From: Octopus vulgaris
Taxonomy: Eukaryota
Direction: 5' to 3'
Length of the DNA: 64,000 nt
NCBI GenBank assembly: GCA_951406725.2
Contig: OX597823.1
Coordinates: forward strand, 95,790,001 to 95,854,000
Shown here: one piece after another, positions 130-52,072 of the stretch
Layout of the letters: every line of letters begins with the position of its first letter
Position numbering within the stretch: the stretch's first letter is position 1
Position numbers and translations under genes: made by a program
Notes under the pieces: model-generated
Database searches by the model: none
What the model was told of the DNA's origin: nothing
The model's input: only the letters and a program-made list of their open reading frames with translations

Positions 130-381
130 GTAAGAACCAATTCCTAATAATGTTTTATACATTTTTTTTATTTTATGAATAAATTCTGTTGAGTCATTAA
201 AGACTGAATCATTTAGTTTGAGCTAAATCCACGTCATAAGTTCTGGCAAACTTTCCCAGTTGGGTCATGGAGAGTAAAGACACCAGAGTTCTTTGTAAAT
301 TGTCGGTACAAGAATAGGTCGTGATGAGACTGTTGTTGAAGCGTTAGCTCTTGTTGTGGCTGGTTACAATTGAACCTGTTG

Positions 382-652
382 GGCATATGGCGTAGTGGTT
401 AAGAGCACGGGCTACTAACTCCAAGATTCCGAGTTCGATTCCAGTCAGTGACCTGAATAATAATAATAATAGTAATAATATCAAAAAATACCTTAGGAAT
501 GAGAACTCAGGTTTGAAATTTCCCCAAGACACTTGATGAAGGCTGGACGGTATATCAGCCGAAACGTTGTGTTAATAACAAACGAGATGAGGACAAATAT
601 CCGTCAAATGTAAATAATATACATAATTCCTCATCTCTTAAATATAGAACTG
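382..652 (+). mobile_element. SINE-like element: tRNA-like head + (AAT)n + hammerhead-ribozyme tail (copy 1)
   Basis: A box TGGCGTAGTGG, B box GAGTTCGATTCC; HHR motif 528-573; homologous copies at 16721-16950 and 19256-19496. Confidence 0.8.
528..573 (+). ncRNA. Minimal type I hammerhead ribozyme motif (C3>U in this copy)
   Basis: Stem I GACAC/GTGTT, core (C>T)TGATGA+A, stem II GGCTG/CAGCC, GAAA, palindromic ACGT stem III, GUU triplet. Confidence 0.7.
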
Positions 653-986
653 TATGATTTTACATGAATATATTTTATCCAAAACTGCTTCATGTGACAT
701 TAATTTTAAGGCATGAAGCTGGCAGAATTGTCAGCAAGCCGGATGAGATGCTGAGCAGCATTTTGTCTGTCTTTACATTCTGTTTCAAATTCTACCAAGA
801 TTGACTTTGCCTTTCATCCTTTCAAGGTCAATAAAATAAATACCAGTTATGCACTGGGGGAGGGGGTCAGTGTAACTGACTTGCCCCTACCCTTGGAATT
901 GCTGACCTTCTGCTAAAATTTGAAACCAATTACATACACACATATTTGTGTGTGGGTCTGTAGGAATAAAATATATCTCTTTTCAG

Positions 987-3674: not shown

Positions 3675-5211
3675 GTAAGTAATTCTTTAAGACATTCTAC
3701 ATTCTTGACACGACTTCAAAGAACCGTGTCTTTGTTCTTTCCATACTCTCACATTTAAAATGTAATCTACGAGAATCTCAAGAGAACTTTCTGGTTCTTT
3801 CAAGACAACAAAAAACACTCCATGTTAGGCATGGGCAACCTATTTTTGCTCTTTTTGAAGCTAGCCACTCAAGGTATGGCTCATTGGTGGGCCACACTGC
3901 TAAAGAAAAATTCAAGGTAATTTTTTGTTAAGTGAGCCATTAAGAAAGTCCTGTCACTGCTCTCTGTAGTTTCCAGAAATAGCAGCGAAATTTCCCTCCA
4001 ACCACACCCTACTGTCTTAAAAGAAGGAAGGACAGGTTGGATAATGTAGTTGTAAAGATTAGTAAATAAAGGTAGGATGGTGACTGAGAGGTAAAGCAAT
4101 CAGAACAGCAGTTACATTTTCTCTTGAATTTGTTGGTCCTAGGTGAGGGACAGTACTCACAACTTTTCCCCAGGGACTCTCCGAGAGTGAAGTAGAGAGT
4201 TAATTTGAATGTAATTTATCTTCAATTCGAGCTGTAACTATTGTAGGTCGGTGTCTGTGAAGATGGTGAAAGTGGCTAGGAATCTGTAGCACTTTGTTAC
4301 TGGAAGGAAACAGATAAGCGAAAAAGTAGTTAAAGGGAGATAACTAAGGATAGCAGCCATGATGCTGGTTGTTAAAAAAAACAAAAAACCATGAAGATTT
4401 CAGAGAAGAAAAAGATCTTCTATAAGACTGGAGTGGTGGGATTTAATTATATTCTTCAAATTCTGAGATTAAATCCTGCCAAGGTGAACATTGAAGCACT
4501 TTCGGCTATGGTTGATAAGTTCTGGAATTCATGTAATCAGCTAAATTTTTACACTAAAAAATTGCTAGCCTCATACTTAAATTAGAAATCTTCATCATCA
4601 TCATTATTATTATGATGATGATGACCTCTGCTTAGATATATAAGAATGAGTTGAAACAATCACTGAAATCTCAACAGCTTAGTTTGACATCTTGGGGCAA
4701 GTTATTGCCTAAGATTGATCTGAGTGGCAGAGAAGGTGTCATGATGCATCTAAACAATATCAGTTGAAGAAACAGAACGGTAAAGGAATTCTATCCTGCA
4801 AATCAACAGACGACACATTTGTCCAATCCCAGCTAAAATCCAAATCATCAGTTATTGTGACTTCATAGCAAACTCCATCCGTATCTGGACTCAAATCATA
4901 GATGCAGCTTCATGTTTTTTTTTTTAATCGTTTCCTTCAAATTTTGAAGTCAGCCGACACGTGTGATTATCATTATAATATCAGGGGCAGTGGATTGACG
5001 GAATTATCATGGCATCAGGAATAAAATACTCTCCAGTATTTGTTCCACCTCTCTCACACACAAGTTCTGAGTTCAAATTCTGCCTAAACCATGTGCTTGG
5101 GAAGCTAACTTCTTACCACACAGCCACACATCCATTATCACAAATTGTTTTGTCTGATGTTCTACCAATTCTCCCTGCCCTGACCTTATAAATTTAATGA
5201 CAAATGTCTTC

Positions 5212-13919: not shown

Positions 13920-16900
13920 ATGGAAGGCCTGTTAGCTGAGATAGTTGAGTTACAAAAACAACAACTTACTACAACAACTCGCAGAACAACGAGAACAACA
14001 ACAAGGATTGCAGCAGTAAATGTTCCAAATAATGAAGTCGATAACGAAACCGGAGAAAACATTTTCACCTGACCCTGTAGCAAATTCCATGAGTGAATTC
14101 AAATATGATTCCGAAGAAGGAGTAACTTTCGAGGCTTTCTTTCGAAGATTTCAACAAACCTTTGGAAAAGAATTCCAGGATTGGATGGACGATAGGAAAA
14201 CACGTCTAGTGTTAAGAAAACCAGGGACAGCAGAGCAACTTCATACTGCCCCCCAAAAAAGCGTCCGACATAAATTTCACCGACATAGTTGACGTTTTGT
14301 GCGAAATGTTTAGTGAAAAGAGATCACTGTTTAATACAAGATGGAAATGTTTAGACATAGAAAAGAGCGAAGATGAAGACTTCACTCCTTACAGAGGCAG
14401 AGTCAACAAAGAATGTGAGAGACTTAGACTAGAAATGCTTACTCCAGATTCTTTCAAGAGTTTTGCACAAGGCTTGGCTGATGACAGGGATGCAGAAAAA
14501 CCGAACGAAAACTCTATCAAAACTGGAAATGAACCAGGATTTGACATTGCAGAAACTGTCGGAAGAGTGTGAAAGGATATTAAAACTAAGGCATGACACA
14601 GAAGAAATTCAATGGAAAGAGTGATTACACATAAGACCAGTGCAAGGACGTCGGAAGACAAAAGGTTGCATGAAAACCAGAAAAAATATCGGGATGTAGA
14701 CCCATGTAGTGAGATGTGCCTGAAAAAGATTGTTCGTGTAAAAAAGCAAAGGGTTTTCGCTGCGGATTTACAGAACATATAAAATCACACTGCAAAACTA
14801 GAATGATAGGAAAATGGAACAAACAAGAAGAAATAAAATAGTTTGTCAGCAGGAAAAGTTGTGACAACAACAAACAGAAAATTTGTGGATGTGAGAATTG
14901 AAAACACTAGCGTCAGAATGCAAGTAGACACAAGAAGTGATATAACAATCGCAAACAAGGAAACATGGGGACAAATGTGTAAACCTAAATTATGTAGTTC
15001 AAACAAAATGTAACAGGAAGAAAATTATATTTTACGGGCGAACGCGTTTGTAATATAATGTTCAAAGGTCGAACCAAAGAATTGAACGTTTATGTGTTTA
15101 AAAAATCCATGAATATATTTGGCACCGAATGTATGGAGAAGTTTAATTTATGGGATACCCTCATAAGCGCTTTGTGCAATAGCGTAAACAAAGGAGTCAG
15201 ACAATTGAATGAGGTTGATGAAGTGAAACAAATAATGAAAGAAACTTTTCCAAAAGTCTTTTCGGAAGGTTTAGGCTGTTGCACAAAAGCAAGAGTTGCT
15301 ATCAAAGAAAATTCAACACCTATTTACAAGCCCCAGGTCAATAAAGAACTAGAAAGGTTGGAAAGCCTGAATATAATTGAAAAGATTGGCCATGCAGACT
15401 GGGCAGCCCCAGCAGTGAATGTAAAAAAAACATAATAAGCCTAGAGGGTGCACAGACTTCTTAAGAGGATTAAACAACTGTTTACTCACACAAAATTTAC
15501 CCACTTCCAAGCCCAGAAGTTTTTGCTAAACTAAATGGAGAGATAATTTATTCAAAGTTAGACCCCTCAGAGGGGGATCTTCAAATTCAGTTAGAGGAAG
15601 ATTTCACACATCTACTAACAATCAACACGCACCATGGATTGTACAAGTTCAAATGACTGCTGTTTGGGGTAAAAGTAGCACTCACCATACTCCAACAAAT
15701 AATGAATGTGATGTTAAGTGATTGAGACTTCGCCATTGCATACCTCAACATTTTGATAAAGAGCAAATTTTGGGTGCAACATGTCGAACACATAAAGAAA
15801 GTATTCGAGAGAATGAGTGAGTACAGTCTAAAACTGACAGAAGAAAACTGTAAAATTTTTTATGAAAAAAATAAAATACCTAGGTCAAGTAATCGACAAA
15901 AGTGGACACAGATTGGACACATCAAGGACAATAACAACAATGAAATATGCCACACCCCCAATGAATGTGACAATGCTACAAGCATTCCTAGGCTTGGTAA
16001 ATTTTTACCAAGTGTATATCCCAAATATACATAAAGTACAGGCACCACTTAATGAATTACTAAATTAAAAATAAAAATGCCAAATGGGTTTGGACAGAGA
16101 AATGCCAGAAAGCATTTAACGAGTTAAAAGATGTTAACTTCAGACTTGTATCTTATGCATTTTGACCCAAAGTTAGAGATAGTACTAGCTACAGATGCTA
16201 GTGAGTATGGGATAGGAGCCATGCTCCTACACAAGGATAATGATGGCAGGAGAAAGGCCATAGCTCACACATCAAGGACACTACTACTGGTAGAAAAGAG
16301 CTAAAGCCATATTGAAAAAGAGGTGTTGGTTATTATATTTGACATGAAAAAGATCCACAGGTTCATTCACAGCAGACGTTTTTTGGTTGCAAACGGACCA
16401 TAGACTTCTAATAGTGATATACAGATCCAAGAAAGGAATCCTGACGCATACAGCAAACAGACTGCAGTGGTGGGGTACCATTCTATTAAACTACAATTAT
16501 AGAATGGAATATCTGCCTTCAAAAAAGTTGAGGGTATGCCGATGGTCTGTCTAGGCTAATCCCAAGAAATAACGACCCGCTGGAGGACACTGTAATAGCA
16601 GCACTAAGAGTGGAAGCAGAAGCAAAAAAAAGTGAACACTATTTACGTTATTTACATTTGACGAATATTTGTCCTCATCTTGTTTGTTGTTAGCACAATG
16701 TTTCGGCTGATATACCCTCCACTAACCCCAAGATTCCAAGTTCAATTTCAGGCAGTGACCTGAATAATAATAATAATATGATCGAAAAATACCTTAGGAA
16801 TGAGAACCCAGGTTCAAAATTTCCAAGACACCTGATGAAGCCTGGAGGGTATATCAGCCAAAACATTGTGTTAACAACAAACAAGATGAGGACAAATATC

Positions 16901-17485
16901 CATCAAATGTAAATAATGTAAATAATTCCTCATCTCTTAAATATAGAACTGCGAAAAAAAGTGATATGGAACATTGTGTATGAACTACCAGTAATACTGG
17001 AAGAAATAAAAAGAAATGCAAGAAATGACAAATTAATTAATTAAACAAAAATGATTACTTAGTAGTGGACCACGACACAAAATGGCCTGAGGGTGTAAGT
17101 GACCACCCTTATATACGGTAATAAACTTCTTAGATGAGCTGTTTGCAAAATTTAGTGCACTGGATATAATTGTTTCTGTTAAGGGAACATGGTTACAGTT
17201 TGTATCCCATGAGTTTAAAAGATTTTTGAGATGTCCACATTAGAACATAAAATTATAGCACCATATCACCCTAGATCAAATGGAATGACCGAACAGTTTA
17301 TGAACACTTTTAAGAGAACTTTGAAGAAAGCTAAGAAGGAAACCATGGACGAAGTCACGATCCAATATTTCTTTAGGGTATACAGGGTAACTCCAAATCC
17401 AAATGTACCAGAAGGAAGTTCACCATCAGAATTAATATTTGCCAGAAAGGTGAAGTCAGTATTCGATAAACTGTTGTGCAAATAA
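13920..17485 (+). pseudogene. gypsy gag-pol remnants
   Basis: gag FKYDSEEGVTFEAFFRRF and SLFNTRWKCL; protease MQVDTRSDITI; RT WAAPAVNVKK and LQAFLGLVNFY; RNase H LATDASEYGIGA; integrase APYHPRSNG; many stops/frameshifts. Confidence 0.88.
16636..16950 (+). mobile_element. Copy 2 of tRNA-head/hammerhead element, 5'-truncated with inverted segment, inserted in gypsy pol
   Basis: 16640-16720 is the reverse complement of 16844-16924; 14-nt flanking duplication gcaaaaaaaagtga (16622-16635) / gcgaaaaaaagtga (16951-16964). Confidence 0.8.
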
Positions 17486-19255
17486 AGACACGCCAAAATT
17501 CTTTAGAATCAGTGTAAGGTTTATGTAAGAATGTACAAAATGGCAAGCAATACTGGGAAGAAGGAGAATACACAGGAAGAATGATGTATGGTGTAAGAAG
17601 TTGAAATGGAATAGAAAGGAGAGATAGAAATCAACTTAAGGAGTCATAGAAAAGGAACCAACAAAAGTAGAAATACCGATGGATTGGCTCTATGAGATTT
17701 TTCAGGTTCCAACACCGTTACAAGAAGTCGAAACCACATGTATAAGGAAAAGAGAGAACACTGAATACCTAAAAGTGGACCCTAAGAAGAAAAGATATTG
17801 AATATATTGAGATAAAAAGGAGGAGGTGGGGGTGAATAAAAGAAATTGCTAAATAAAAAATTAAAAGGTGAGTGTTGTTTAGTGAAACTACACCCTCCCG
17901 GTAAAAAGTGGTAGTAACCAGTCATTATAATTAGACCAGTAGCGGTCGAGAGAAGGTCATGAAGGTTGAGAGTACGTGTAGACTGAGTTGATAGTCGTGT
18001 CTGTGCTGATATAGTAATTATACAGTGATGCTGAGTGGATGTTATAACGATCCAACCTTGCTGAGTGTAAAAAGTTGAAAGAAACATTGCAAAGCATTCT
18101 GGCTGATTCTTTGACAATTCTGCCAGCTTGCCATGTTATCTATTCATCTTTCACTTGTCATTGGACTGCGGCCATGCTGGGGCAGCACCTTGATGAACTC
18201 TTTTTAGTTAAAGGAATTGATCTCAGGACTTATTTTTTTAAGTCTAGTCCTTTTCTGTTGGCCTCTTTTGCTGAACTGCTAAGTTACAGGGATGTAAACT
18301 CACCAAAGCCAGTTCTCAAGCAGTAACAGGGGACTAACACACACACACATATATGACGGGCTTCTTTCAGTTTCCAGTCACAAGGCTTTGGTTGCCATGA
18401 TACTGCTGTAGGAAACTCTTGCCCAAGGTGCCATGCAGTGGGATTGAACCTGGAAGCCTGTTGTTTGAAAACAAGCCCCTTACCACACCTCCACACCAGC
18501 ACCTAGTAATAGTTAGCATAGTAAAGCAGAAAGATTAATATTTATTTCTTTATTGCCCTACAAGGGGCTAAACATAGAAGGGGACAAAAACAAAGACAAA
18601 GGGATTAAGTTGATTACGTCAACCCCAGTGCATAACTGGTACTTATCTAATTGACCCCAATAAGATGAAAGGCAAAGTCACCTCAGCAGAATTTGAACTC
18701 AGAATGTAATGGCAGATGAAATACCACTAAGCATTTCGCCCAGCATGCTAACGATTCTGCCAGCTCACCGCCCTAGAAAGATTGATATTAAGCAAGACTT
18801 TCAACCAAGACTTTCAACCAATTTCCATTACATGCTGTTGTGTTGTGACATCTGAGAGCATGAGCGATGCTTACACATCACTGTGAACATCCACTTGAGA
18901 AGTTAGTGGTGCTATATTTACACTTTGAATCACTTCCCCTGCCTGTGTCAGCAAACCACTTAACCTGATTACGATCAAGCAAGAGGCCCTTATCATGGAA
19001 ACTTTGGCTCAAGTAGAAAATTCTGAAAATTAACTTTATTTTAATATTAATTTCAATTTAAACATCATTTAAGTTAAAGTAGAGGGCACGACTGGAAAAT
19101 ACAAAAACTAAAAGAAGCAGCACATGCGTTAGGACACAACAACCTCCTAAGCAGACTGAGTGCAGATATGAGTAGCATATGGGGAACTGGTACTAAGGAA
19201 GGATAGGAAAATATTAGATTTATAAGCCCTAAAATTCACTCCATAATTGCCCACA

Positions 19256-19496
19256 GGCATATGGCGTAGTGGTTAAAAGCACAGGCTACTAACCCCAAGA
19301 TTCCGAGTTCAATTCCAGGCAGTGACCTGAATAATATTAATAATAATATCAAAAAATCCCTTAGGAATGAGAATTTTCCCCTAGACACCTGATGACGGCT
19401 GGAGGGTATATCAGCATTGTGTTAACAACAAAGATGACAAATATCCAATAAATGTAAATAATGTACATAATTCCTCATCTCTTAAATATAGAACTG
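19256..19496 (+). mobile_element. Copy 3 of tRNA-head/hammerhead element
   Basis: Same 5' start ggcatatggcgtagtgg and 3' end cttaaatatagaactg as copy 1; small deletion removes the GAAA of the ribozyme. Confidence 0.8.
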
Positions 19497-19784
19497 TATC
19501 ATTGTTGTTGTTGTAAGGCAGTGAGCTGGCAGAATTGTTAGCATGCTTAGTAAATTGCTTAGCAGCATTTCAGCCATCTTTATGTTTTTGAGTTCAAATT
19601 CCACCGAGGTCGACTTTGCCTTTCATCCTTTTGGAGTTGATAAATTAAGTACCAGTGAAACACTGGGGTCGATGTAGCCCCCTCCCCCAAAATTCCAGGT
19701 TTTGTGCCTTTTGTAGGAAGGATTATTATTATTATGTTCCACATTTTTAATTTCTATTTTTCATTTTATTTTGTGTGTGTGTGT

Positions 19785-20320: not shown

Positions 20321-20523
20321 GAATGAGACTCATATATATCATCTCATTCTATGTAAACCCCAACACTTTGTATTGTCCCTTTCATTCATCCCCTTGGTGG
20401 AAAAGAAAAATTATGCTTTTCAATGCAAAAATTCCTCTTTATTTCCGTTATAAGGTTGGATGAAAGACAATGATTCTAGGTTGATATAATAAATCCCCTC
20501 AAATATTTTCATTTTGTTATCAG

Positions 20524-20635
20524 ATGTCAAAATCTAAAGGTAACGTGGTCGACCCTATGCTATTGATGTCCAAATACACTCCAGATGCACTCCGTTATTT
20601 CTTGCTCAGAGAAGGTGTCCCCCATTCTGATAACA
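20524..20635 (+). CDS. MARS2: MARS2 exon completing the KMSKS class I motif
   Basis: Acceptor ttttgttatcag; [37 protein letters not shown]; donor GTAAGT, phase 1. Confidence 0.96.
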
Positions 20636-24616: not shown

Positions 24617-27600
24617 GGGTAGAGGGAAGGTTGCTTGGTTGATTGAGGAGTGGTCTTAGAAAATATCATAAAATATTAACACAACCATCACTTTTCTAAG
24701 TGTTGAGTAAACTGGTGCTCGTTATCTATAAATAGTTTATTGTTATTTATTATATTTGTCCCTTTTTTCTCTTTTTTTAACTGAATTTATTTTATTTTGA
24801 GCAACCAATATATTTTTAGTCAAATCTTTTCGTCAAAGTTTTTTTGGCATAAAAAATTCCTTAAAAAATGTATTTTGTAACTAATGATTAATTCATATTC
24901 TGTTATTTCACATTTGTTATTATCATTATTATTATTGATACTCTCCTTTCTGTTGCTGCTGGTCTGGATGTGAGGCGCATCTCTTTTGCTACTCGGAGTA
25001 AATTTTCAGTCCATTTCAAGTGTTTCTACATGTGAATAAGTGGTTTGCTGTTTCTTTACTGCAACATAATACAATCATTATTATTACTACTACTACTACT
25101 ACAATAGCCTCCTTCCTCCATCAGTGTCCAATACAACTACTACCACCACCACCACCACCATCATCACAACCATTACCATTAGTAATACTATTGCCCCCAT
25201 CACCAGAAAATAATTAAGCCAAAAAACAAGAGCAATTATAAATAATCTTGATATAAATTTGCTATTAGGAAAGTGTTTCTGAACGATATATATATATATA
25301 GCCGCAGGAGTGGCTGTGTGGTAAGAGGCTTGCTTACCAACCACATGGTTCCAGGTTCAGTCTCACTGCCTGGGCACTTGTGAGTGGATTTGGTAGAAGG
25401 AAGCTGAAAGAAGACTGTTGTATGTATATATATATATATATATGTGTGTGTATGTGTGTATGTATATGTGTGTGTATGTGTGTGTGTGTGTATGTATGTA
25501 TGTGTGTGTGTGTGTATGTATGTATTTGTGTGTGTGTGTTTGTCCCCCCCCCCCATCGCTTGACAACTGATGTTGTCCCTGTAACTAAGCAGTTCAGCAA
25601 AAGAGAGCCAATAGAATAAGTACTAAGTTTACAAAGAATAAGTCCTGGGGTAATTAGTTCGACTGGAGGCAGTGCTCCAGCATGGCTGCAGTCAAATGAG
25701 CAAGTAAAAGATCAAAAGATTATGAGTGAGTGAACAAATGAAAGAAAGTTGCACTCAATACGTTTGGTTGGCGCTAAAGTCTGACTCAACTCCACATCAC
25801 TTAGTTTCATGGGTGTAGGTCATGTCCACTTCCTCAGATGTACACACAAAATAATGATGGTACACACACAAATATACATACATTTGTGTGTTTGTACATA
25901 TGTGTACACACACACACACACTATAATTTCCTTAAAGATAAAAACCTTTCTTCTTATCACATTCCATGTTTTTGTTAATTGGTGTCAAGACTTTAATCTC
26001 AAACTTGATTAATCTGACGGCAAACTTGGGAAACACTCGATTTGAGTGGATTTGTTTGTGGAATGTTGTTTGTAAATTATATTTGTCCTGACATGTGGCA
26101 GAGACATTTATCACTTTTATAAGACTGCTTAATTTGTGTATACGCATGCATGCAAGTATACTATTAACAATCTATGTGTATGCATGCATGTATGTATGTA
26201 TTGTGTATATGCAAACGGTCGCACACAATATGTAGGTATTGACTTGATAGATACAAAGTGTGCATGGGTAAATATTAACTGGACACACAGATTCTATTGT
26301 AGTGTTGACCTGGTAAATACTGAGTGACAATATGGACAAGACGCAGCTGCACTTATTTTTATCATTTCTCCTTAAGGTTGGCAGAGTTGTTAGCAGACAA
26401 AATGCTTTGCAGTATTTCTCTTTATGTCCTAAGTTCAAATTCCATTGAGGTTCACTTTGTATTTCATCTTTTCGGGCTTCATGAAATGAGTATTAAGCTT
26501 TGGTGTAAAGAAATGCCCTCTCCCTCAAAATCTTCACTTTCTGCCAATAATAGAAAGAATTATTATTTTTATTATTATTATTACTATTATAAGGCAAGGA
26601 GCTGGCAGAATCGTTAGCCCACCGGATAAAAGGCTTAATGACATTTTGTCCGACTTTATGTGCTGAGTTCAATTTCTGCTAATGTCAGCTTTGCCTTTCA
26701 TCCTTTTGGGGTCGATAAAATAAAGGACCAGCCGATGACAGGAATTGATGTAATCAACTAGTTTTCTCCCCCAAAACTGCAGACTTTATGCCTTTCATAA
26801 AAATAATAATTATTATTATCATTGAGGTGGTGAGCTGACAGAATTTTCTGTTGCATTAATTCTGGCTCTTTATGTTCCGAGTTCAAATCTCATCAAACTC
26901 AACTTCCATCTTTTCAGGGATTGATAAAATAAAATAGCAGTGAAGTGGTTGTCAGTTTAGCCAACTTCAGTCCCACATCTTAAAATTGCTGGCCTACAAT
27001 GTTCTGGCCTTGGCCCTTAATTAGAGGGAATTGTTATTAAGGGTGATGGATTGGAAGTGCTGGAGAAAACTTTTGTGCTTTATCGGTTTTGGTTTTTTAT
27101 CTTCTGAGTTCAAATCCCATTGAAGTTACCCTTGTCCTTCCAGCATCAATAAAAAAAAAACACTGGTGGGGTTGGTTTAAGTATGTCCCTTGTCCCAAGA
27201 TTCATCACCCTAAGCTGTTTAGAAATAATTTTTATATCAAATTATAATTGATATTGGTTTCAAATTTTGGCAAAAGGCCAGCAAGTGCAGCGGGTAGGGT
27301 GGAGTAAGTTGATTACATTGACACCAGTACACAACTCGTACTTATTTTATTGACCCTAAACGGATGAAAGGCAAAGTCGACCTTGGTGGAATTTGAACCC
27401 AGAGCATAATGACAAACAAAATGCCATTAAGTATTTTGTCTGGTGTGCTAACGATTCTGCCAGCTTGCCACCTTAATTGTAATTAATACTTGAGAATGAA
27501 TATTTGAAGATTGGTAAGCACTGAATAGTAAGCACTGAAAAGTCAAAGATAAATTGTAAGAGAAACCAAGATAGAAATGTAAAACTTCAATCATTTTGTA

Positions 27601-41903: not shown

Positions 41904-43286
41904 TATATATATATATATCACTGTATCAACCAGACTATCAGATGTTAGACATCACTGGTCACAATTCGCTTTGCATCATTTTAGGTTTTGAATGATGCCA
42001 CCCCACTGGCTAGACAAGCAGACTAATATTTCCCCTGGTTGGAAGGTTGGTCTGTGGCAGGGTGACCCACATACGGGTGAGTGGACTGGAGCAACGTGAA
42101 GTGAAGTGTTTTGCTCAAGAACACAACACACGGCCCAGTCCAGGAATTGAAACCTTGGTCTAACAATCATGAGTGCAATACCCTTACTACTAAGCCTCTG
42201 TGTGTGTGTGTGTGTGTGTGTTTATGGAAGGCAGTTTTTATCATCTAATGAAACAATTTTCTATGTAAAAGATAACACCCCCCCCCCCACACACACACAC
42301 ACAACTACATTATCTGAAAGGAAAATAATTTTATGAAAACGGGGAGAAAAAAATAAAGAGATTTCACTCCCTGAATGTTTATATTTGTCGCTGGAAATAG
42401 ATTTGGGGTCCCCTAGATTTTGTGTAATTCTAGAACATCACTGAGCAGGCATTTTTTCCTCCCTCCATCCCAGCCGGAATTCCGTAACTGTTTATTTTTG
42501 ACATGAATTTTGGTAAAGTTTTGTGATGAGAATTAATAATCTTTATTGTTGTTTAAACCCTTGTAGTCATCAGTTGAGGAAGGCATTCCAGTTGTGACCA
42601 TCCCATCTTTAACGTGCCTTGATATACATTATTTAGGGTGTCTTTCTCCTTTCAAGATATTAATCTATGCATTTGAGGGTGATTCAGTTGTTATTTAGAT
42701 ATCATATAAAACTGTAAAAGAGATAATGTAAATATAGGACAATGTACTAACATAGCTGCAGACGTGGCTGTGTGGAAAGAAGCTTGCCTTCTAACTACAT
42801 GGTTCTGGGTTCAGTCCCACTCTGTGGTACCTTGGGCCAGTGTCTTCTATTATAGCCTCCAGCCAACCAAACTTTTGCGAGTGGATTTAGTAGGCAGAAG
42901 CTGGAAAGAAGCCCATCGTGTGTGTGTGTCTTAGTATCTGTATTTGTCCCCCACCCTGCACCACTTGATAACTGGTGTTGGTGTGTTTACATCCCCATAG
43001 CAGTTCACAAAAGAGACTGATAGAATAAGTACCAGGCTTTTAAAAAAAAATTAAGTACTGGAGTCGATGTATTCAACTTAAAATTCTTCAAAGCATTGCC
43101 CCAGGATGGCCACAGTCTAATGACTGAAACAAGTAAAAGATAAAAGATAAAGGATAAACATTTGAGGGAAATTTGGCTGTTATTTCAGATACCAAGTAAA
43201 CAATAAAAGAAACAAGAGATAATGCAAATATAGGCTGTAATGGTTGTCTGGTAAAATATTTTACAGAGAGAATGGCATCTGCATTA

Positions 43287-43492
43287 AGGCAGCGAGCTGG
43301 CAGAAATGTTAGCACACCGGGCGAAATGCCAAGCAGTATTTCGTCTGTCGCTACATTCTGAGTTCAAATTCCACCGAGGTCGACTTTGCCTTTCATCTTT
43401 TTGGGGTCGATTAAATATGTACCAGTTATGTACTGGGGTCGATGTAATCGACTTAATCCGTTTGTCCCCTCTGTGGGTAGTAAAGAAATAAG
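43287..43492 (+). mobile_element. tRNA-derived SINE family A (representative; ~20 copies, e.g. 709-930, 2208-2412, 5248-5730, 18595-18775-, 19516-19735, 26592-26810, 27250-27475-, 39743-39955, 50053-50268)
   Basis: ggcagcgagctggcagaa.. B box gagttcaaattcc; core gaggtcgactttgcctttcatc..gtcgat..aagtaccag; often (ATT)n tail. Confidence 0.85.
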
Positions 43493-50266: not shown

Positions 50267-50373
50267 CATTATTATTATTGTTATTATTATTATTGTTATT
50301 ATTATTATTATTATTGTTATTATTATTATTATTGTTGTTATTATTATTATTGTTATTATTGCTATTATTATTA

Positions 50374-50465
<92 letters not shown>

Positions 50466-51109
50466 GTTATTATTATTATTATTATTGTTATTATTATTAT
50501 TATTATTGTTATTATTATTATTATTATTATTATATATTATTATTATTGTTATTATTATTATTATTATTGTTATTATTATTATTGTTATTATTGCTATTAT
50601 TATTATTGTTATTATTATTATTATTATTGTTATTATTATTATTATTATTGTTATTATTATTATTATTATTGTTATTATTATTATTATTGTTGTTATTATT
50701 ATTATTGTTATTATTGCTATTATTATTATTGTTATTATTATTATTATTATTGTTATTATTATTATTATTATTGTTATTATTATTATTGTTATTATTGCTA
50801 TTATTATTATTGTTATTATTATTATTATTATTATTGTTATTATTATTATTATTATTGTTATTATTATTATTATTATTGTTATTATTATTATTATTATTGT
50901 TATTATTGCTATTATTATTATTGTTATTATTATTATTATTATTGTTATTGTTATTATTGTTATTGTTATTATTATTATTGTTATTATTATTATTATTGTT
51001 GTTATTATTATTATTATTATTATTGTTATTATTGTTATTGTTATTATTATTATTATTATTATTGTTATTGTTATTATTATTATTATTGTTATTATTATTA
51101 TTATTATTA

Positions 51110-51141
<32 letters not shown>

Positions 51142-51213
51142 GTTATTATTATTGTTATTATTATTATTATTATTATTATAATTATTATTATTGTTGTTAT
51201 TGTTATTATTATT
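50267..51213. repeat. ~950-bp (ATT)n microsatellite with GTT/GCT variants
   Basis: Direct reading; produces the poly-Y/L/I/N ORFs. Confidence 0.98.
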
Positions 51214-52072
51214 TAGGCAGTGAGGTGGCAGAACCATTAACATTCTCAGTTCAAATTCTGCCAAGGTTAACATTGCCTTTCTTCTTTTGGGGGTTGATAA
51301 ATAAATACCAGCTGAACAATGGGGTCAATGTAATCGACTTCTGCCCTCCCCCAAAGTTGCTGGCATTGTGCTAAAATATGAAATCAATGTAGCCACAGGT
51401 CAATGATGACTGAGCCAACTTGCCGATCCTTGGGTATTTCTGTTGGAGTGGCCAGGAACATGCAACAGGTCTGCTGTTGTTGTGGGCTGCCCTTCCTTGT
51501 TTACTTGCAGATCCTATTATACACTCTTGATATCCTCTGATGACTCATGTGGAGTGGAAGCACAAGTGCAGCTTGGCCTTTGCTTCCACTCCAAAGGTGT
51601 GTCTTTTCCTGCTTGGCTACTGTTTAGTTTCAGGTCAACACTGACTGAGCAAAACTATTGTGGAAGACATTCCACCTGTGGCCATCCCAACGTTTGTAGG
51701 GCACCTAAGGATGTGTGTGGGAGTGTGTATGAGTGTTTAGGTTTGGTTGTAATAAAGACAATTTTTACATTAATCTGATGGGTTGTTACACTGTCTTTTT
51801 GTGGAGTAAAATTCATTATTCTGAAACAAGAATGTTATTCGGTGACTTTGAAGCTTAAGAATAACAAATATTGTGTCGTATAGTCTCCTGGGGCTAAATT
51901 ACAGCAACATTCGTCCTAAACCAGGACTGCCATGTTATGTTGGCAAACAATCTTTACTCCAAAGTACTGTTACTGAATATCTGCTGTTGTGAAATTTAAA
52001 AATAGTAATTTTCTAACAAATATATATGTGCATGTGTGCGTGCATGCGTGTGTGTGTATTTGTTATTCTTAA

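Follow-up and report, generated by a model that had tools for sequence, protein, structure and literature searches.

What kind of mobile element joins a tRNA-like sequence to a hammerhead ribozyme in an octopus genome? The stretch considered here (the window) comprises 64,000 nucleotides (nt) of Octopus vulgaris, positions 95,790,001 to 95,854,000 of contig OX597823.1 in assembly GCA_951406725.2. It holds three copies of such a repeat, which we number copy 1 (382-655), copy 2 (16721-16951) and copy 3 (19256-19499; window positions). An initial annotation, made from the letters alone, had taken them for a short interspersed nuclear element (SINE) or retrozyme with an RNA polymerase III (Pol III) promoter, mobilized by a Penelope reverse transcriptase (RT). 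As far as sequence can tell, however, the unit of about 272 nt is not a separate SINE, but the pseudo-long terminal repeat (pseudo-LTR) of an autonomous element of the Penelope/Poseidon type. Its unusual feature appears to be a tRNA-derived head placed between the stop of one open reading frame (ORF) and the start of the next, the hammerhead itself being ordinary.

Self-comparison of the window and alignment recovered the three copies at the places first reported, with copies 2 and 3 showing 88% and 82% identity to copy 1. Each carries the distinct core lesion that had been described for it (C3>U, GAAA>AAAA, and loss of GAAA, respectively), and copy 2 has two extra changes, ACGT>ACAT and one in stem II. 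The whole genome (2.8 Gb in 227 contigs) was then searched for the unit, giving 6,004 first-look candidates. A 23-mer from the tail matched exactly at 4,741 places, while its reversed control matched at none. As 20 of 50 tails found by other means match this 23-mer exactly, we estimate at least 12,000 tail-bearing copies. Three copies (L053, L054, and L055 on contig C17) lie inside a segmental duplication of more than 5 kb that is 96-97% identical.

Upstream of copy 3, the DNA also proved repetitive (2,174 candidates) and codes for the C-terminus of a Penelope-type ORF; positions 19081-19182 are 76% identical to residues 523-556 of the protein P0002 (tblastn, E 1.6e-9). A search of the genome with the ORF protein gave 133 matches among the 131 candidates that were scored, out of 12,190. 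In 23 of the 25 RT loci that were fetched, the unit directly follows an RT ORF of the presumed GIY-YIG type, although 3 of these 23 represent one segmental duplication, and the head begins 29 nt after the ORF stop. On the other side, the hammerhead and tail form the first ~52 codons of an ORF. The tail reads on into this ORF in L087, L088, L112, and L182 (in the same frame in L087 and L088), a motif just beyond the tail has 102 exact matches in the genome, and a tandem of ORF end, unit, and ORF start is present in L299, L300, and L321. Along the element, the ORF stop is thus followed by 29 nt, the tRNA-like head, (AAT)n, the ATG, the hammerhead, the stem-loop of the tail, and the remaining ORF. 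Because the unit joins the end of one ORF, through spacer, head, and linker, to the first ~52 codons of the next, we read it as a pseudo-LTR. The separate non-autonomous SINE or retrozyme of the initial annotation is therefore not borne out, since its "tail" is the N-terminus of an ORF. The genome-wide linkage of head and tail does hold, as does mobilization by a Penelope RT, and the suggested comparison with the pseudo-LTR of an autonomous RT-bearing Penelope element in the same genome places the tail in just such a repeat.

A 569-residue open frame in L076 supports a single RT ORF. Its RT domain matches RVT_1 of Pfam at E 2.7e-6, slightly below the gathering score, the match to a telomerase RT profile is weak (E 0.028), and 2,744 homologs are found at E<=1e-30. 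The N-terminus is 40% identical to that of P0005, an intact protein of 847 residues, over 194 residues (E 8e-42), and the TPDDG motif, which is coded by the hammerhead, recurs at the N-termini of P0005 and P0151. The failure of Pfam to detect GIY-YIG in the C-terminus of the element's own ORF counts against this picture. Pfam does recognize the domain in the homolog P0071 (40% identical; above the cut-off, E 1.6e-5) and weakly in P0005 (E 0.23), whose C-terminus aligns to that of the element without notable gaps, so that a putative endonuclease is assigned through homologs. The domain order and, by eye, no extra Cys-rich linker suggest placement in Penelope/Poseidon rather than Neptune/Nematis. 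Among the closest named relatives of the ORF is the P0008 cluster, which includes proteins of the barnacle Amphibalanus (53% identity; other relatives 55-68%); horizontal transfer between marine invertebrates might explain this kinship.

The tRNA-type head is upheld by a profile made from the tRNAs of the same genome: at >=10 bits it matched 14 of 25 own loci, 13 of them at the expected place, and 0 of 25 shuffles. The majority head scores 20.2 bits, with a best pair score of 60 against a shuffled maximum of 50, and the majority sequence retains both the A and the B box. At the same threshold, no tRNA-like piece followed the ORF in any of 34 related loci. ARAGORN found no tRNA in the window, nor in the majority head at a lowered threshold. 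A strict pattern test for A and B boxes was dropped in favor of the profile, as it missed 5 of 5 own positive controls. The 29-nt spacer repeats the head imperfectly in inverted orientation, which suggests that the head was captured by the same head-to-head joining that Penelope insertions display.

This joining, and the ends of insertions generally, were studied in the first 90 of 100 listed exact tail matches on contig C1, picked irrespective of their 5' ends; removal of L173, a duplicate of L172, left 89 copies. An adjacent inverted 5' arm is present in 60 of the 89. The 3' ends of the inverted arms cluster at unit +237 to +247, while the selected forward arms end at +270 to +274, so that the two 3' ends lie ~25-33 nt from one another. 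Direct repeats of >=8 nt flank 23 of the 36 copies with mappable outer ends (2.4% of mismatched pairs), and the target duplications are mostly ~9-14 nt. An inverted copy and an optional tail have been described for Penelope-like elements (PLEs; PMC8557442), and the tail of 25-33 nt is slightly under the 30-40 bp quoted for canonical endonuclease-positive (EN+) PLEs. In copy 2, the inverted arm is this head-to-head signature. The two 3' ends also match the two internal RT start sites described within a stem-loop of the Anolis element PAc (PMC11167929), and the 3' stem noted earlier (gagatgagga/tcctcatctc) corresponds to that stem-loop. Some insertions end deeper in the ORF (+307 to +875 and beyond), so templates reach past the tail. 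Head-to-tail arrays of whole units were found in 0 of the 89 copies, and partial tandem pieces in 2.

In the majority sequence, the minimal core of the hammerhead is intact and carries one extra A, stem II measures 5 bp, and ACGU is palindromic, in agreement with the minimal type I motif with palindromic stem III first proposed. Both core and palindrome are kept in just 20 of 57 copies, and variation is greatest at core position 7, the only base that is free (76 T, 16 A). Of 42 related metagenome loci, 20 have a matching motif downstream of the ORF. Covariation in stem I, which had been put forward as a test, is seen across 10 families: in a motif search that imposed no stem I requirement, this stem is Watson-Crick in 28 of 30 cells with four pair types, compared to 9.0 for shuffles. 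Covariation within the family was left out, because its copies decay neutrally. When the whole-unit monomer is folded, stem II forms with a probability of 0.98 and stem I with 0.01, while stem I does form in an isolated 62-nt fragment. We therefore regard the hammerhead as an ordinary Penelope minimal motif, predicted to act only as a dimer or with the help of a protein; going by PLE hammerheads as described, dimer action of low activity would be expected (PMC4209133). It does not define the insertion ends, as copies end at the RT start sites instead. No heap of read ends was seen at the predicted cut site in fragmented RNA sequencing (RNA-seq) data, a library type of little power here, and a check for circular RNA found no back-joint among the RNA joints listed from an ordinary RNA-seq library. 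The proposed search of Rfam matched neither a tRNA nor a hammerhead, be it in the window (E<=1) or in five loci (E<=10). In a related element (L216:3-2741, P0121), the first residues of the protein are apparently hammerhead-encoded as well, and a ribozyme within the ORF would thus recur in the clade.

The 5' ends point to the head. Among the 27 sampled copies that reach +8, 19 stop within -9 to +8 and 8 continue to between -61 and -1683. The stop rate at the start of the head is 0.063 per base versus 0.0044 inside the unit (P~8e-16). This test is conservative, since two heaps of 5' ends at +76 (the AAT linker) and +227 (a local duplication), which are alignment artifacts, were kept in the background rate. 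Independently, 18 of 27 inverted arms stop at -4 to +8, and genome-wide an exact 23-mer from the head occurs 2,862 times versus 727 for one just upstream. From the 102 loci in which the tail runs into the ORF, 30 were sampled; 6 of these reach the head, and 3 of the 6 begin at -3 to +4, one of them extending to +1133.

On these indirect signs taken together, we consider it likely that the tRNA-derived head of this pseudo-LTR serves as an internal Pol III promoter and determines where the RNA of the element begins. In the mechanism we propose, the captured head would fix this 5' end, and, as modeled on Anolis PAc, the RT would bind near the ORF start and use two nicks in the target to initiate within the RNA, at unit +238-247 or +272-274. 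A cDNA begun at the upstream pseudo-LTR would run ~250-270 nt before meeting the 5' end of the RNA, and thousands of SINE-sized solo units could therefore be made from the RNA of the autonomous element. Starts at the downstream pseudo-LTR, or tandems that are read through, would account for the longer, ORF-bearing copies. In the 2,590-nt majority sequence, whose N-terminal part was rechecked at depth 4-36, the sense strand contains 16 runs of three T (T3) and none of four (T4), whereas T4 runs are present in 8 of 9 related pseudo-LTR regions. The absence of T4 (P=0.003 by mononucleotide shuffle, P=0.053 by dinucleotide shuffle) suits Pol III weakly.

Several observations weigh against the promoter role. 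The T4 deficit is borderline after the dinucleotide control, and 2 of 17 related ORFs also lack T4. The tRNA of origin was not singled out by comparison with 35 tRNA sequences of 10 anticodon types from 30 loci (best scores Arg 60/57, Cys 57). The other 3 of the 6 ORF-continuing copies extend upstream through the head into the previous ORF, so read-through templates exist; the templates thus appear to include both long RNAs that start at the head and read-through RNAs. In three RNA-seq runs, whose source species may differ from that of this genome, 0.07-0.09% of reads fall on a 621-nt stretch, about equally on both strands and without a heap of molecule starts or ends, and a ~2.6-fold step in depth at the head is also seen in contigs of run X15 (kind not recorded). 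These reads therefore fit passenger transcription. Pol III transcripts are, moreover, uncapped. They are also described as short (PMC10886601), so the protein of the element would probably have to be made from another transcript, by RNA polymerase II (Pol II).

The explanation that best survives beside the Pol III promoter, though we hold it to be somewhat unlikely, is that the element is the same autonomous one but carries its tRNA-like piece as a passenger. The heap of 5' ends would then be caused by a hairpin around the start of the head (through stalling of the RT or fold-back of cDNA at a small palindrome), or by a Pol II start or an RNase P-like cut that coincides with it by accident. 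The hairpin stall is its main form, because the spacer, as an inverted and imperfect repeat of the head, can pair with it (-18 to +17, -8.2 kcal/mol in the L087 variant). Five further 5' ends lie at the hairpin base (+13 to +19), the stop rate is raised at +9 to +19 too (0.016 per base), and in 7 of the 19 copies stopping at the head both arms start at or near it. The known Penelope promoter, that of Drosophila, is moreover described as TATA-less, LINE-like (after long interspersed nuclear elements), and internal (PMC2377424). However, 19 stops fall at the apex of the hairpin and 5 at its 3' base, where the RT would first meet it. A head-starting inverted arm is absent in the remaining 12 of the 19, making fold-back unnecessary, and neither the stronger tail stem (pair probabilities 0.8-1.0) nor stem II shows a comparable excess (0.004-0.005 per base). 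The majority sequence also keeps its A and B boxes and a body without T4.

A bolder version of the promoter reading, in which the whole ~2.6-2.9-kb template RNA of the autonomous coding element is made by Pol III and its body has been purged of T4, seems to us doubtful.

The relation between solo and ORF-linked copies bears on whether the short units form a lineage of their own. Solo copies (n=55) and ORF-linked copies (n=43) agree in their majority base at each of the 14 positions where they differ at Fisher p<0.01, and the differences there consist of decay and deletions. The two appear to be one sequence lineage; solo units make most sense as short products of RNA from the autonomous element, although their secondary amplification is possible. 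An independent Pol III SINE or retrozyme with solo copies as masters and the Penelope RT supplied in trans is accordingly very improbable: head-starting copies do outnumber ORF-linked ones ~3:1 (19 versus 8 of 89; 2,862 versus 727 motifs), the solo unit does combine promoter boxes with both RT start sites and lacks an internal T4, and its median divergence is slightly lower (4.4% versus 6.0%, confounded by the picking of the first 30 loci), but there is no diagnostic base between the two groups, the 3' half of the unit is coding and part of an autonomous element, templates extend past the tail, arrays of whole units are lacking, and solo units stop at about ORF +155, while the PAc template is described as needing the ORF to +172 (PMC11167929).

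Features of the three copies in the window (strand +, forward; -, reverse;., not stranded).
Feature	Positions	Strand	Remarks
Copy 1, tRNA-derived head	381..452	+	A box 388-398, B box 433-442; 5' ends heap at its initial base
Copy 1, (AAT)n linker	455..480	+	length differs among copies
Copy 1, Penelope ORF start, ~51 codons	499..651	+	ATG at 499; one stop at codon 6; spans hammerhead and tail
Copy 1, minimal type I hammerhead	528..573	+	stem I 528-532/569-573; core 533-539, C3>U; extra A 540
Copy 1, hammerhead, continued	541..568	+	stem II 541-545/556-560; GAAA 561-564; palindromic ACGU; predicted cut after 568
Copy 1, 3' stem-loop and tail	584..654	+	arms 584-593 and 628-637
Copy 1, sites of the two usual insertion 3' ends		+	loop of the stem-loop (unit +238 to +247); ~652-654 (+272 to +274)
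Copy 2, target-site duplication, left	16625..16635	.	11 nt
Copy 2, inverted 5' arm	16640..16721	-	82 nt, 94% to own forward arm; hammerhead stem II to tail loop
Copy 2, forward arm	16721..16951	+	5'-truncated within head; B-box-like motif at 16740; hammerhead from 16827
Copy 2, target-site duplication, right	16954..16964	.	11 nt
Copy 3, broken remnant of putative C-terminal endonuclease region of Penelope ORF	19081..19225	+	stop codon 19223-19225
Copy 3, spacer from ORF stop to head	19226..19254	+	29 nt; imperfect inverted copy of the head's first ~17 nt
Copy 3, pseudo-LTR unit	19255..19499	+	head (A box at 19262, B-box-like motif at 19307), linker, hammerhead from 19384 with GAAA deleted, tail

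All three copies are intronic: they sit, on the same strand, within a gene for methionyl-tRNA synthetase that has exons at 1-129, ~990-1090, and 20521-20631, with a KMSKS-type motif at ~20521; the pieces 1-129 and 20521-20631 match tRNA-synt_1g of Pfam. An Rfam match to MIR7723 at 16649-16915 was rejected, being merely the hairpin formed by the inverted arm of copy 2. A second, commoner family of short repeats occurs at 706-930 and at 18 other places in the window with 70-85% identity (for example 19514-19668, 27253-27466, and 43284-43438), often after (AAT/TTA)n runs; members of it lie shortly downstream of copies 1 and 3. Positions 50270-51217 hold ~950 nt of a compound (TTA)n-type repeat that adjoins copies of this second family. 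Outside the window, an open frame of 494 residues for another RT of non-LTR type, perhaps R4/Dong-like, occupies 1694-3175 of L033 (read in the element's orientation). It starts directly past the head region and an AAT/AAC run in a copy of the element, and may be a microsatellite-targeting insertion in the linker.

The element shares much with described Penelope/Poseidon PLEs such as PAc: a single RT ORF (here with a putative C-terminal endonuclease), a pseudo-LTR whose minimal type I hammerhead lies where the ORF starts, strong 5' truncation, an inverted 5' copy, and an optional ~30-nt tail between two stem-loop RT start sites (PMC11167929, PMC8557442, PMC4209133). The ORF of Anolis PAc likewise starts within the hammerhead (PMC11167929). 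As far as these descriptions go, a tRNA-derived head with A and B boxes, where most 5' ends fall, is found only in the octopus element. A Pol III promoter of small-RNA-gene origin within a retroelement terminal repeat is described for the TRIMp3 elements Cassandra, Helenus, and Ajax, for which an origin by SINE insertion into the repeat has been proposed (PMC10886601). These are, however, non-coding LTR elements of 311-1263 bp with a primer-binding site (PBS), a polypurine tract (PPT), and target-site duplications (TSDs) of 4-5 bp, and their autonomous partners are argued to need Pol II (PMC10886601), whereas the element presented here has PLE-type ends, a coding non-LTR body, and duplications mostly of 9-14 nt.

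Schistosoma Sm-alpha and Sj-alpha similarly combine a tRNA-related promoter with a following type I hammerhead in many thousand copies (PMC2770079, PMC6765202). Sm-alpha is described as a non-coding, SINE-like, often tandem repeat with a canonical active hammerhead, while the hammerhead here is minimal and lies inside an ORF, in a unit that belongs to an autonomous element. The non-LTR retrozymes of animals are also short, pseudo-LTR-related hammerhead repeats tied to PLEs, but are reported as tandem monomers giving rise to circular RNAs (PMC7229834; bioRxiv 10.64898/2026.07.22.740005). The copies in the octopus are solo or head-to-head, carry a tRNA head, and end at RT start sites rather than at the ribozyme cut. 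A tRNA-derived SINE (SINE2) has the same kind of head with A and B boxes, but here there is no non-coding lineage distinct from the autonomous partner. A 2026 repeat annotation of Octopus vulgaris lists Penelope families and many unclassified SINEs, and its main text does not refer to ribozymes (PMC13282606). Searches of the literature, as distinct from Repbase, Dfam, SINEBase, and older octopus SINE papers, turned up no autonomous PLE for which a tRNA head is described, nor, among the entries listed, an account of the octopus family. The octopus family may already carry a library name.

By definition, SINEs are Pol III-dependent parasites of LINE-type elements, and the usual assumption is that autonomous retroelements require Pol II. 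In this case, a tRNA-type promoter sequence lies inside the terminal repeat of what appears to be an autonomous Penelope element. Through the internal start that PLE RTs use, that terminal repeat would become a SINE look-alike. This lends genomic support, in an invertebrate, to the mechanism of two start sites described for PAc, and offers a testable origin for tRNA-plus-hammerhead repeats. If the whole RNA were indeed made by Pol III, the LINE-like parent and its SINE would be combined in one element, which would show how a repeat of the Sm-alpha kind can arise from a Penelope pseudo-LTR. It is also a warning that solo Penelope ends may be hidden among the "unclassified SINEs" of repeat libraries.
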